From IMG/VR virus record IMGVR_UViG_2778261056_000006, positions 1-42,371 of that record: a DNA stretch of 42,371 bases. One strand, 5' to 3'. Positions 1-25,781 of this stretch are shown piece by piece. A program made the translations under genes and the position numbers. Numbering within the stretch: position 1 is the stretch's first letter; every line of letters begins with the position of its first letter. Source of the stretch: a virus. Lineage: Duplodnaviria > Heunggongvirae > Uroviricota > Caudoviricetes. The notes beneath the pieces were generated by a model that was not told the origin of the DNA, searched no databases, and worked only from the letters and a program-made list of their open reading frames with translations.

Positions 1-243
1 TTAATTTATCTGCTTTTTATCCTCCCACTCTTTGATTGACTCAGAGCGCCAGCGGTTAGGGTTGCCGGGCCAGTCAGGGGGTGGGAACGGGCATACGAAG
101 CCCCGAGGCATTGTGTCTGCACTTTGCCATGACCAAAGGGTTTTGCGTGAAATTTTGTAGCGACTGGTCAGGTCTGACGTTACCAAAATATCATCCATAG
201 CTCTCTCCAGTTGCCCGTTCGGGCCATTCAAAATCTTTTTCAA
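1..243 (-). CDS. putative excisionase-like / AlpA-type DNA-binding protein
   Basis: 80-aa ORF with TTG start; small basic protein with winged-helix-like segment (ISRKTLWSW...GNPNRWRSESIKEW) in the xis position left of the recombination genes; assignment by motif recall only. Confidence 0.4.
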   Translation of the reverse strand: MKKILNGPNGQLERAMDDILVTSDLTSRYKISRKTLWSWQSADTMPRGFVCPFPPPDWPGNPNRWRSESIKEWEDKKQIN

Positions 244-22245: not shown

Positions 22246-22266
22246 TGTCAGTACACTGGAGCGTTT

Positions 22267-22908
22267 ATGGCAACACTCAAAGACCTTTCTCAGCAATTAA
22301 AGAAGGTACAAAAGCAGGTGCCATATGCTACAGCACTAGCTATGACAAAAGTTGTTCGTCAAATAGAAACGGCACAGAAAACAGCGTTCGAACGACATCT
22401 GGAGAGCCCGACACCGTTTACCGTTAAATCAGTTGGTTCGGTGGCGGCAAGGAAGAACAACCTGACTGCAAAGGTTTTTGTCCGCGATACCGCGGCTGGT
22501 TATCTGGAACCATTCGAGTTAGGTGGAGAGCATAAGCTCAATAGCCAAGCGCTATTGAACCCCAAGAACGTCAAGCTAAACAAATACGGCAACATGCCGC
22601 GTAATAAGCTCTCACAGCTCAAAGCAAAGCCAAACGTATTTATTGGTGACGTTGGTGGCGTGAATGCCGTGTGGCAGAGAAAAAAGCCGAAAATCAAAAA
22701 AGGGAAGAAACGGGCAAAACGTTCTCCGAACGGCACGCGCAGAGACAAGATTAAGCAACCTGCACCAAAATTGCTCATTCGGTTTGGAGACGCGCTTCCA
22801 GTCAAACCAACGCTCGGCTATATGGACAGGGCAAACACCATGGTCAACGCATTGTTACCCTCAGCGCTGCACCAGGCGATTGCTGAGGCGATCAGCTCGG
22901 CCAGATAG
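22267..22908 (+). CDS. hypothetical basic protein upstream of cos
   Basis: 213 aa from ATG 22267; Lys/Arg-rich centre (KKPKIKKGKKRAKR); the ORF track's upstream extension is discounted. Confidence 0.5.
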   Translation: MATLKDLSQQLKKVQKQVPYATALAMTKVVRQIETAQKTAFERHLESPTPFTVKSVGSVAARKNNLTAKVFVRDTAAGYLEPFELGGEHKLNSQALLNPKNVKLNKYGNMPRNKLSQLKAKPNVFIGDVGGVNAVWQRKKPKIKKGKKRAKRSPNGTRRDKIKQPAPKLLIRFGDALPVKPTLGYMDRANTMVNALLPSALHQAIAEAISSAR

Positions 22909-22998
22909 CCCCCCAGGGGTTTTGGGTCCTTCCTGAGCCTTTTGTAAGGCACGGGCATTGCGCGCCGCGGTGTTTTCCTAGCTACAACTTTCAGATTT

Positions 22999-23150
22999 GT
23001 GTCCCATGTCCCACCTCTGGCGATCATTACGGACACCTCGCCAGCTCTGGCTATTCCAGTTTATTCCAGTGGGACATTCTGGTGGGACATGGCAAAAATG
23101 TCCCAGGCGAATGTCCCACCCCAGAAAATGTCCCAGGTGATGTCCCATGA
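22999..23150. repeat. cos region: array of at least 8 GTCCCA(N)/TGGGAC motifs in both orientations plus a CTGGCG-N16-CGCCAG dyad (candidate cosB and cosN)
   Basis: Motifs at 23001, 23008, 23069(rev), 23082(rev), 23098, 23111, 23128, 23140, directly upstream of and overlapping the small-terminase start. Confidence 0.55.
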
Positions 23151-23716
23151 CCACGATGAACCAGAGTCAGTACGCACAACATTCAGGTGTGGATCGCAAA
23201 ACAATTGGTCGGTGGATTAAAGCCGGGCGCTTCATTGTGATGGACGGAGACCTGATTGACGTAGAGGCCAGCGATGCGGCATTGAAGAAAAACCGCGATG
23301 GCAAAGACCCGCGCGCCTCGAACGCGAAGAAAAAGAAAACTCCCGTCGTTAGCGATAACGATGATGACGGTGATGAAATCAATAAAACTGTCCGCCAGAT
23401 AATGCTCACTGAAGGGGCAGATCTTTCGAGAGAGGAAGCGGGACGTATCCGCGAGAATTACATGGCCCTGCAGGCAAAGCTGCAGTATGAAAAAGACAGC
23501 GGCCAGCTTATTGAGCTGACAGCAGCCGAGGAGGTTTTATTCAACGCCTTTCGCCAACAGCGTGATGCCTGGCTTAACTGGCCGTCCAGGGTGGCGCCGC
23601 TAATGGCTGCTGATCTGGATGTACCGGCGGACAGGATGACAGAGGTGCTGATTGAACATGTCCACAAACACATCTCAGTCCTCGGAGAGCCAGAGTTTAA
23701 CCCGGCAGAAGATTGA
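23147..23716 (+). CDS. terminase small subunit (Nu1-like)
   Basis: 189 aa; N-terminal HTH (SQYAQHSGVDRKTIGRWIKAGRF) comparable to lambda Nu1; overlaps the start of the large subunit as in lambda. Confidence 0.6.
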   Translation: MTTMNQSQYAQHSGVDRKTIGRWIKAGRFIVMDGDLIDVEASDAALKKNRDGKDPRASNAKKKKTPVVSDNDDDGDEINKTVRQIMLTEGADLSREEAGRIRENYMALQAKLQYEKDSGQLIELTAAEEVLFNAFRQQRDAWLNWPSRVAPLMAADLDVPADRMTEVLIEHVHKHISVLGEPEFNPAED

Positions 23717-25781
23717 GCGTCTTGAATTAAGCGTCCGCAAAGGCTGGACACCCCCGCCGCGTATCAGTGTGCCGCAGTGGGCAGATGACTATCGTAAGCT
23801 GGCAAAAGAGGCTGGGAGCACTTCGGGAAACTGGGAAACATCGACGGTAGAAATTGCCCGCGGACCGATGCTTGCCGCGACGGAGTCCGGGGTTCATATC
23901 ATCACTGTAATGTGCTGTACCCAGTTGATGAAGACAGCACTGCTGGAAAACCTTTTTGGCTATTTTGCCCACCTCGATCCTTGTCCGATACTGCTGCTGC
24001 AGCCGAAAGAAGAAGCCGCTGAACAGTTTTCGAAAGAGCGTATTAGCCCGCTGGTAAGGGTGACGCCGGTACTGCGTAAAATCATCGGTGATTCGAAACA
24101 GAAAAGCTCGAAAGAAACCATTCTTTACAAGGCGTTCACTGGCGGATTTCTGGCGCTGGCGGGTGCTGGTAGCCCTGATAACCTTGCGCGTCGTCCGATT
24201 CGTGTCCTGCTGGCGGATGAAGTGGACAAGTACCCGATAACCCGCGAAGGCGATCCAATTGCGCTGGCCGAAGAGCGTACAGCGACATTTGGCCTGACCT
24301 GGCTGTCTGTACGCGCCTGTTCGCCGACGGTGGAGGATGAGAGCCGCATTGCTGACAGCTACGCCGACTCCGATCAGCGCCGGGCATCTGTGGTTTGCCC
24401 GCACTGTGGCCACCGCCAGTTCCCCGACTTTTTCAAACACGTTCAGTGGCCGAAAGAGGGAGATAAACACCTGACTAAATCGGCGATGCTCTATTGCGAA
24501 TGCTGTGGTAGTGGCTGGTCCGAAGGACAGCGCCTCAGAGCTCTGCAAACTATTCGATGGCATCAGACGCGCCCATTTGAGTGCTGCGGGGAGCGGCACT
24601 CACCGCTGATGGATTATGACCTTGCCTGGCGGGCGGCAGACGAGGGCAGCGTTGAAAAGGTCTGGCAATGGTCAGAGTCGGAACGGCATGCGGTCTATCG
24701 CGCAATCTGCCCCTCCTGTGGAAAGGAGGCAGTCGATAACCACCACGCGGGGTACCAGGCATCCAAGCTTTTCAGCCCCTGGCAAAAAGATAAGCCGTCG
24801 GATATTGCGAAAAAATATATCGATGCGAAGGGCGATCCGGATAAGGAACAGGCGTGGTGGAATACCCAGATGGGGCTTCCGCACCGACCTAATCATGGGA
24901 AACAGCTCCCTGTTGATGTTCTGCTGGCGCGCCGGGAAATATTTCCGGCCGTCGTTCCGGACGGGGTGGCATTGTTAACAGCTGGAGTTGATACCCAGGA
25001 CGATCGCTTCGAAATTACGATCACCGGCTGGGGGAGAGATGAAGAATCGTGGTCGGTCGCGCATGACGTTATTTATGGTGACCTTGAGACGGAAGAACCC
25101 TGGAAGCGACTGGATGCATACCTGAAACAGATCTGGCGACGTGGTGACGGGCGCGGCCTGAATATCATGGCAACGTGCATGGACTCCGGTGGCCACCATA
25201 CGCAGAAGGTATACGAATTCGCCAAAGAGCGTCTTGGCCGTCGTGTCTGGGCAATTAAGGGGGAGTCTGCACAGGGAGGTAAACGCAATCCTGTCTGGCC
25301 GACCAAACGACCATCATCGAAAAGCAAAGCCAGTTTCCGCCCTGTCATTCTGGGGGTTAACTCAGCGAAAGACGTGATACGCGGTCGCCTGCATCTTGAG
25401 CCACCCAAACCTGGCGCCGCCGCTGCGGGTTATATGCATTTTCCTGACGATCGCGATCTCGGGTACTTCAATCAGCTGCTGGCGGAGCGACTGGTTTACA
25501 AAGTCATTTCCGGGCAGCGGTACAGTATCTGGGAAGCAATACCAGGACGAGCTAACGAAGCGCTTGACTGCCTCGTTTACAGCTATGCCGCGCTGTGCGG
25601 TCTCAAACATATGGGGTTAAAACTCAACGTCCGGGCCGCCAACCTCGAAGCCGATCCGGATAAGTTCCTGCCAGCGCCAGTTGGACAGGAAGAAAAAATC
25701 AATTACGAGCTGCCGGGTGCGGTTATTGAAGAACCAGCGCCGGTCAAACGTAAGCGAATATCGCAACTCCTGCCGAAATAA
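23658..25781 (+). CDS. terminase large subunit (lambda GpA family)
   Basis: VALLTAGVDTQDDRFEITITGWGRDEESW and ANEALDCLVYSYAAL match conserved lambda gpA segments; first ATG at 23658 (ORF track begins at TTG 23652). Confidence 0.85.
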   Translation: MSTNTSQSSESQSLTRQKIERLELSVRKGWTPPPRISVPQWADDYRKLAKEAGSTSGNWETSTVEIARGPMLAATESGVHIITVMCCTQLMKTALLENLFGYFAHLDPCPILLLQPKEEAAEQFSKERISPLVRVTPVLRKIIGDSKQKSSKETILYKAFTGGFLALAGAGSPDNLARRPIRVLLADEVDKYPITREGDPIALAEERTATFGLTWLSVRACSPTVEDESRIADSYADSDQRRASVVCPHCGHRQFPDFFKHVQWPKEGDKHLTKSAMLYCECCGSGWSEGQRLRALQTIRWHQTRPFECCGERHSPLMDYDLAWRAADEGSVEKVWQWSESERHAVYRAICPSCGKEAVDNHHAGYQASKLFSPWQKDKPSDIAKKYIDAKGDPDKEQAWWNTQMGLPHRPNHGKQLPVDVLLARREIFPAVVPDGVALLTAGVDTQDDRFEITITGWGRDEESWSVAHDVIYGDLETEEPWKRLDAYLKQIWRRGDGRGLNIMATCMDSGGHHTQKVYEFAKERLGRRVWAIKGESAQGGKRNPVWPTKRPSSKSKASFRPVILGVNSAKDVIRGRLHLEPPKPGAAAAGYMHFPDDRDLGYFNQLLAERLVYKVISGQRYSIWEAIPGRANEALDCLVYSYAALCGLKHMGLKLNVRAANLEADPDKFLPAPVGQEEKINYELPGAVIEEPAPVKRKRISQLLPK

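Follow-up and report, generated by a model that had tools for sequence, protein, structure and literature searches.

The stretch of DNA analyzed here (42,371 bp, positions 1 to 42,371 of IMG/VR virus record IMGVR_UViG_2778261056_000006, hereafter the window) carries a temperate, contractile-tailed (myovirus) prophage, and the 238 bp non-coding gap between an open reading frame (ORF) matching phrog_1924 and the small terminase subunit gene (terS) contains a dense array of the heptamer TGTCCCA, a candidate cosB component of a cohesive-end packaging site (cos). The prophage has a lambdoid early region encoding RecT, an exonuclease VIII-like protein and an O-like initiator, its head genes are of the lambda type, and it also has sheath, tape-measure and baseplate genes. 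The gene order at cos is endolysin, Rz/Rz1, the phrog_1924 ORF, cos, terS, a gpA-type large terminase gene (terL), gpW and a lambda-family portal gene. The plus-strand terS gene (23147-23716) encodes a small terminase (TerS) of 189 aa that belongs to phrog_57 and has a predicted N-terminal winged helix-turn-helix (HTH) domain, and the plus-strand terL gene (23658-25781) starts at ATG 23658 in independent gene calls (707 aa), within an ORF that opens at TTG 23652.

There are exactly eight copies of TGTCCCA in the 148 bp from 23000 to 23147, six in the forward orientation (starting at 23000, 23007, 23099, 23112, 23129 and 23141) and two inverted (starting at 23070 and 23083), in agreement with the first-pass annotation of this DNA, which counted at least eight copies in both orientations within ~150 bp. 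By simple arithmetic ~0.02 copies are expected by chance per 148 bp and the cluster is far beyond this; there are ten copies in the entire 42.4-kb window, as compared with a mean of ~5 in dinucleotide shuffles of it. Over divergent relatives the consensus of the word is R-TGTCCCA-Y. Most of the words form pairs 12-13 bp apart, in addition to one tandem pair with a spacing of 7 bp. The last word (23141-23147) has its final A in common with the terS start codon (ATG 23147), and the overlap of array and gene start noted in the first-pass annotation is real, because this start is backed by a Shine-Dalgarno-like AGGTGA at 23135-23140, by an M-x-x-M N-terminus that is kept in relatives, and by independent gene calls that also give 189 aa. 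In most relatives, and in a related class of loci with the word GGTAACA (see below), the last word likewise follows the Shine-Dalgarno sequence and either shares the A of the terS ATG or is 0-2 nt from it, a placement that could couple TerS occupancy to terS expression.

To the left of the array are two further elements that resemble parts of lambda cos. The heptamer GGGTCCT (22924-22930, plus strand), a cosQ-like packaging-termination element, lies 24 nt before the putative cohesive-end sequence; the same heptamer, read directly in the lambda sequence, is at lambda coordinates 48473-48479, 23 nt before the overhang, and we take it to be lambda cosQ. In the literature cosQ is described as a highly conserved 7 bp element, and the column identity of GGGTCCT among 58 distinct close relatives, the set used for all column identities given here, is ~1.0; it is also found in Serratia phage vB_SspM_BZS1 (MT843275; hereafter BZS1), Citrobacter phage phiNP and more distant loci. 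The candidate cosN is the plus-strand 12-mer GCATTGCGCGCC at 22955-22966, which would form a 12-nt 5’ cohesive end with nicks at its borders, subject to a 1-nt uncertainty of register. This is the same 12-mer as the 5’ overhang of BZS1, with conserved flanks on both sides; its column identity is 0.999, and the BZS1 record annotates it as cosL, position 1-12. The BZS1 paper (PMC7556043) derived that overhang from PhageTerm, with a check of the prophage junction by PCR and sequencing. The register used by lambda (ACG/…/CGCGG, with slashes for the nicks) would move both nicks by one base to give the overhang GGCATTGCGCGC and a cosQ spacing of 23 nt; two-fold symmetry counts at cosN are low (4-5/11) and do not separate the two registers. 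The contigs found are long and chromosomal with cos in their interior, and their ends provide no evidence of physical ends.

Between cosN and the first word is a plus-strand spacer of 33 bp (22967-22999) that is rich in T-tracts, has a column identity of 0.87, and aligns in part with lambda (GCGG.GTTTTC.CTA). In lambda the segment between cosN and cosB, I2, is of similar length (~33 bp, bp 18-50; PMC4856287), and we refer to the spacer as I2-like. Homology to loci with other words stops exactly at its 3’ edge, and some E. coli and plasmid matches stop at 22998/22999, the last bases before the first word. Across the family the block from cosQ through cosN to the I2-like spacer is the most conserved part of the region. 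The whole putative cos spans ~22924-23147 and comprises cosQ, the 24-nt spacer, cosN, the 33-bp I2-like spacer and an eight-word cosB.

Counted from the first base of the cohesive end, the words are at bp 46F, 53F, 116R, 129R, 145F, 158F, 175F and 187F (F, forward; R, inverted), and the terS ATG is at bp 193. The tandem pair TGTCCCATGTCCCA (23000-23013, plus strand; bp 46-59) is the candidate equivalent of lambda R3, and a double word fills this slot in every class of cosB described below. Next is a variable spacer of 56 bp (23014-23069), which holds a CTGGCG/CGCCAG dyad and two copies of TATTCCAGT at 23052-23060 and 23062-23070; this duplication, listed in the first-pass annotation, was recovered by a repeat finder. 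The inverted TGGGACA words at 23070 and 23083, which are spaced by 13 bp (23070-23089, bp 116-135, minus strand), would correspond to R2, and the four forward words that follow (starting at 23099, 23112, 23129 and 23141; 23099-23147, plus strand) to R1 together with extra sites.

Conservation in this region tracks the words. Relatives were sampled by TerS protein, giving 31 genomic loci and 80 IMG/VR loci, and two DNA-pattern scans added further loci. Column identity is 0.98 for the words and 0.80 for the non-word bases of the array; the two words of the tandem pair have values of 1.00 and 0.99, the four distal forward words have values of 0.94-0.995, and the 56-bp spacer is at 0.79 in close relatives and unalignable in L010-L014. 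This spacer is 56-77 bp long in TGTCCCA loci and 62-74 bp in those GGTAACA loci that have a long array, some of them with an AT-rich spacer. Loci in Ewingella, Rahnella, Yersinia and Hafnia, whose TerS proteins are 65-68% identical to that of the window, have unalignable spacers and yet the words persist in the same order, with a tandem pair at bp 47-60, two or three inverted words and three or four forward words, the last of which abuts the ATG in most of them. The number of words per locus among relatives runs from five to nine.

The identity of the word changes together with the N-terminal recognition helix of the adjacent TerS. All 67 distinct loci whose TerS helix reads GVDRKT[IV]xRW have TGTCCCA, and 20 of 22 loci with the helix GVSRKTVTxW have GGTAACA; the two exceptions are a contig with only 12 nt upstream of the gene and a VSPKT variant with GGTAAAA. 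Other pairings are (A)TTGACAC with GMSRQALYNW (L248, K. variicola plasmid pKP187), TTCACAC with GMSRRAFYNW (L267), GGTAACG with GVSKKTVTQW (L263), TGTTCGCAC with CSDxLVRRA (L260 and L268), and TGTCCGCA with CDEKQVRRx (L262 and L291). Thus the shared block at 22915-22999, containing cosQ, cosN and the I2-like spacer, carries at least five to seven different cosB words, each with its own TerS helix, and the first word pair is at a fixed distance from cosN in every class. Single-base variants of a word are paired with single-residue variants of a helix, as in GGTAACA with SRK and GGTAACG with SKK. TGTCCCA and GGTAACA differ at word positions 1, 4 and 5, and residues D16, G21, R22 and I24-R28 of TerS are candidates for reading these positions. 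The first-pass annotation had suggested that the repeats define a packaging specificity distinct from that of lambda; the occurrence of other words with different TerS helices on the same cosQ-cosN chassis (GGTAACA, TTGACAC, TGTTCGCAC and others) supports this view, so far as specificity can be predicted by comparing loci. Among IMG/VR sites with cosN and a double word, a terS gene is present just downstream in all 111 that could be tested, so that no copy of cos in a satellite or an element of the phage-inducible chromosomal island (PICI) type lacking a terminase was found among them; twelve apparent negatives proved to be a VNRKT variant. In two loci (L259 and L290) with this cosQ and cosN, TerS and its words are replaced by an ORF at bp 57, which we take to be a putative HNH endonuclease from its Cys/His-rich N-terminal sequence.

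TerS also occurs as natural chimeras. Loci in Raoultella, Edwardsiella, Providencia, Xenorhabdus and E. coli have the long layout (a forward tandem pair, two inverted words and three or four forward words) built from GGTAACA, and their TerS, represented by P0114, is a chimera: the first 40 aligned residues are 83% identical to BZS1 TerS and 50% identical to that of the window, whereas the last 53 aligned residues are 96% identical to the window TerS and 24% identical to that of BZS1. The hosts of such chimeras (P0114; L015-L019 and L247) include Klebsiella, Raoultella and E. coli, and in every case the words are GGTAACA in the long layout. TerL is also a mosaic, being 37% identical to BZS1 TerL in the N-terminal ATPase part and 73% identical in the C-terminal nuclease part. 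The site in TerL that contacts its TerS partner is placed in the TerL N-terminus. The TerL-binding domain is reported in the literature to lie within the TerS C-terminus in lambda and 21. The mosaic TerL and chimeric TerS fit three co-inherited pairs of modules, and we infer these to be cosN with the nuclease half of TerL, the C-terminal domain of TerS with the N-terminal part of TerL, and cosB with the N-terminal domain of TerS.

We propose that the TGTCCCA array is the cosB of a lambda-type cohesive-end packaging signal in a temperate myovirus prophage, with cosN located upstream, and we put the probability of this at about 85%. The repeats are most likely docking sites at which the small terminase subunit of the prophage starts packaging, as the first-pass annotation suspected in describing them as cosB-type sites for a Nu1-like HTH subunit. 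The indications are their position between cosN and terS, the double word in the R3 slot, the pattern of forward, inverted and forward words, their conservation, and the co-variation of word and helix. A tandem pair in the R3 slot gives the array the geometry of a complex, lambda-type cosB. The likeness to lambda is considerable. The cosQ heptamer is identical and is a similar distance from the overhang (24 nt here, 23 nt in lambda), the predicted overhang is likewise 12 nt and 5’, and a spacer of ~33 bp separates cosN from the first site, which is at ~bp 46-60; an internal site is inverted, and the TerS start is at bp 193 as compared with bp 191 in lambda. TerS is in the same PHROG as Nu1 (E-values to phrog_57 of 4.6e-36 over residues 1-188 for TerS and 1.3e-76 for lambda Nu1), and is followed by a gpA-type TerL, gpW and a lambda-family portal. 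TerL matches the Pfam families GpA_ATPase (2.2e-64) and GpA_nuclease (2.1e-78), and its full-length identity to lambda gpA is 29% (E 2e-60). Reading the lambda R sites from their CGTTTCC motifs places R3 forward at ~bp 52-67, R2 inverted at ~bp 105-120 and R1 forward at ~bp 155-170, and the literature describes R2 as opposite in orientation to R3 and R1. It is also reported that the single critical R3 of N15 occupies bp 48-59, that its distance from cosN is critical, and that the critical R3 contacts in lambda and 21 are at bp 56 and 59. A pac-type (headful) signal is ruled against by the gpA-type TerL and by the fixed cohesive ends of BZS1, the closest characterised relative.

There are also differences from lambda. 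Here there are eight 7-bp words, mostly paired, rather than three 16-bp R sites; TerS has diverged too far for the Pfam Phage_Nu1 family, and by gene content the virion is contractile-tailed. Alignment of the block from cosQ to R3 with lambda gives a score of 46, which is marginally above shuffled sequences (24.7 ± 7.7, maximum 48). In the model of TerS made with AF2, the N-terminal domain has helices at residues 6-13 and 17-25, a strand at 36-38 and a helix at 39-50, with pLDDT of ~76-79 (moderate confidence). Foldseek matches this domain to small winged-HTH proteins, including Xis, BldC, the gpNu1 DNA-binding domain (1J9I) and TerS-related entries, all weakly (E 0.1-1); the match to 1J9I has a TM of 0.51 and a probability of 0.82 with a weak E-value. 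Searching a TerS profile against PDB sequences returned only marginal matches to BldC (E ~0.6).

Several observations weigh against a lambda-type cosB read by TerS, and should be set beside those above. TerS has no match to Pfam PF07471 (Phage_Nu1) even at E<=10, and its hhalign match to Nu1 is weak, with a probability of 15.6%, although the alignment is collinear over residues 4-59. The placement of cosN depends solely on identity with BZS1, whose TerS shares just 33% identity with that of the window, and the cohesive end GCATTGCGCGCC matches that of lambda (GGGCGGCGACCT) at only 5/12 positions. Two words 7 bp apart are not both readable from one face of the DNA. The best match to the integration host factor (IHF) consensus WATCAANNNNTTR in the 56-bp spacer between the R3 and R2 equivalents has three mismatches, the commonest outcome for random 60-mers, and with no IHF consensus there, the array may not follow the lambda model, in which R3 and R2 are joined by an IHF hairpin. 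Finally, the words and the HTH segment are less than 200 bp apart, and simple linkage contributes to their co-inheritance; but linkage alone would not exchange all eight words at once and leave the layout intact, nor would it fix the distance of the first pair from cosN.

The words might instead be operators for a different DNA-binding protein of the phage or its host (a late-gene regulator, for instance, or a factor for replication or partition), with TerS reading something else. Short words in both orientations are typical of many regulators and the sequence alone does not name the reader, but we consider this very unlikely: a scan of 22400-23400 found no sigma-70-like promoter, the words are essentially confined to the array within the 42-kb window, the class of word changes along with the N-terminal helix of the neighbouring TerS in at least five classes and in a TerS domain chimera, and the constant distance of the first pair from cosN holds in every class.

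A second alternative is that the inverted and forward words act as an RNA or DNA hairpin (23069-23119) that controls how the terS transcript is translated or how stable it is. The inverted pair and the first two forward words after it do form a 22-nt palindrome (23069-23090 with 23098-23119, as reported by the repeat finder) that recurs in relatives, and the predicted RNA stem-loop is stable (-38.8 kcal/mol, z = -3.0) and ~15 nt upstream of the terS Shine-Dalgarno sequence. However, the bases between the words are not kept complementary, with only one to three of five to six positions matching in 12 loci, so that the pairing is seen as a by-product of the orientation of the words; moreover, a hairpin would account neither for the switching of the word with the TerS helix nor for the words outside it, namely the two distal forward words and the invariant pair at bp 46-59. 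We reject the RNA hairpin as the primary function of the array, and there is little prospect of its being the explanation.

The first-pass annotation placed a candidate cosN nicking region within 22999-23150 and drew attention to a CTGGCG/CGCCAG dyad preceding the repeats. The dyad is present, with arms at 23017-23022 and 23039-23044, but the tandem pair is to its left and the other six words to its right, which places it within the array. Its 6-bp arms are below the 8-nt threshold of the repeat finder, about one such dyad is expected by chance per 150 bp by simple arithmetic, the arms have column identities of 0.66 and 0.78 as compared with 0.98 for the words, and it is absent from L009 (whose TerS is 88% identical), from L010-L014 and from all GGTAACA loci. 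That cosN is at this dyad, with terminase repeats on both sides as in SPP1 pacL/pacR, is the least credible of the alternatives, for although words do flank it, its arms are at chance level and poorly conserved, and the BZS1-identical 12-mer lies outside it, in the most conserved block of the region. Because of that 12-mer, and because the dyad is not conserved, the nicking region is better placed ~35 bp upstream of 22999-23150, with cosQ 24 nt further upstream.

The sequences show the anatomy of the site, its conservation, the co-variation of word and TerS helix, and the identity of cosN with a mapped end in a relative; how TerS binds, where the nicks fall in this phage and how the complex is arranged are inferred by analogy with lambda. 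The N-terminal winged-HTH domain of TerS would bind the words, and the tandem pair at bp 46-59 would anchor the holoenzyme at a fixed distance from cosN, where the gpA-type TerL nuclease would introduce staggered nicks. Beyond the 56-bp spacer, the two inverted and four forward words may provide cooperative contacts that steady the post-cleavage complex on the left chromosome end, and cosQ would act in nicking at the downstream cos once a chromosome has been packaged. Foldseek ranks Pukovnik Xis (4J2N) and BldC (6AMA and 6AMK) as the closest structures to the predicted N-terminal domain. Xis and BldC bind arrays of direct repeats head to tail, and a similar cooperative filament of TerS might form on direct words spaced by 12-13 bp, although these proteins have another biological role and the structural matches are weak. 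A more elaborate version, which we consider doubtful, is that this is an IHF-independent, multivalent cosB in which each heptamer is read by one winged-HTH of an octameric TerS or of a head-to-tail, Xis- or BldC-like filament, and that the family forms a series of recognition codes with three separable modules. The lambda terminase tetramers contain eight TerS subunits (PMC4856287), and the correspondence with eight words is suggestive; we do not rely on it because the word count varies from five to nine in relatives.

The closest characterised phages are BZS1 and phiNP, which were recovered by distant and protein searches; megablast of 22600-23800 against GenBank phages gave no match. These two phages share cosQ, the cosN 12-mer, the I2-like spacer and the gene order, including the phrog_1924 ORF upstream of cos. 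They differ in having a short cosB of three GGTAACA words with the terS ATG at bp 75, and a TerS that has the helix VSRKTVTxW and is 29-33% identical to that of the window. The cosB is not annotated in the GenBank records of BZS1 and phiNP and is not mentioned in the portion of the BZS1 paper available to us (PMC7556043), which is the sole relevant match in a full-text literature search for the double words and the 12-mer. A similar situation is seen with lambda and 21 and with N15 and Monarch, in which cosQ and cosN are common and the R sites differ along with matching TerS helices, and in which complex and simple forms of cosB occur within one specificity, as do the long and short GGTAACA arrays here. 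The present group is of another lineage with other words, has at least five classes on one chassis, and its specificities are predicted by sequence comparison.

The phrog_1924 ORF (22261-22908) matches ‘minor tail protein’, with weaker similarity to tail-completion and Neck1 proteins. Being directly upstream of cos, it would be at the far right end of the virion chromosome, away from the other morphogenesis genes, and this position is kept in BZS1 (p72) and phiNP (029). Within it is the single terminator-like site found between 22400 and 23400 (22586-22600, minus strand). In seven loci (L237-L239, L241-L243 and L246) a minus-strand gene of 167 aa, ~300-800 bp upstream of terS, separates the phrog_1924 ORF from cos and has the look of a moron-type insertion; it is absent from the window, and the prophages are otherwise near-identical. 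TerL contains a Cys-rich insertion of ~60 aa (CECCGSGW…FECCGERH…CPSCGKE, encoded at ~24500-24740) that the BZS1 protein lacks.

Prophages of this type are very widespread. The exact 189-aa TerS is indexed in 9,666 blocks of a public assembly collection, and of 5,426 complete E. coli genomes 55 have the cos region, always in the chromosome; the only annotation given to this TerS is ‘hypothetical protein’. The site is most likely a functionally ordinary packaging signal with a recognition word that is undescribed, and the current picture of cos packaging is unchanged. Nonetheless, cos is unannotated in this common prophage, and placing cosQ, cosN and cosB would give the true ends of the virion chromosome and the correct genome orientation for many Enterobacterales prophages. 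The several pairs of word and helix on one chassis, together with the natural TerS chimeras, constitute a system for studying the evolution of packaging specificity, and the pairs could help to predict cross-packaging among prophages or satellites.

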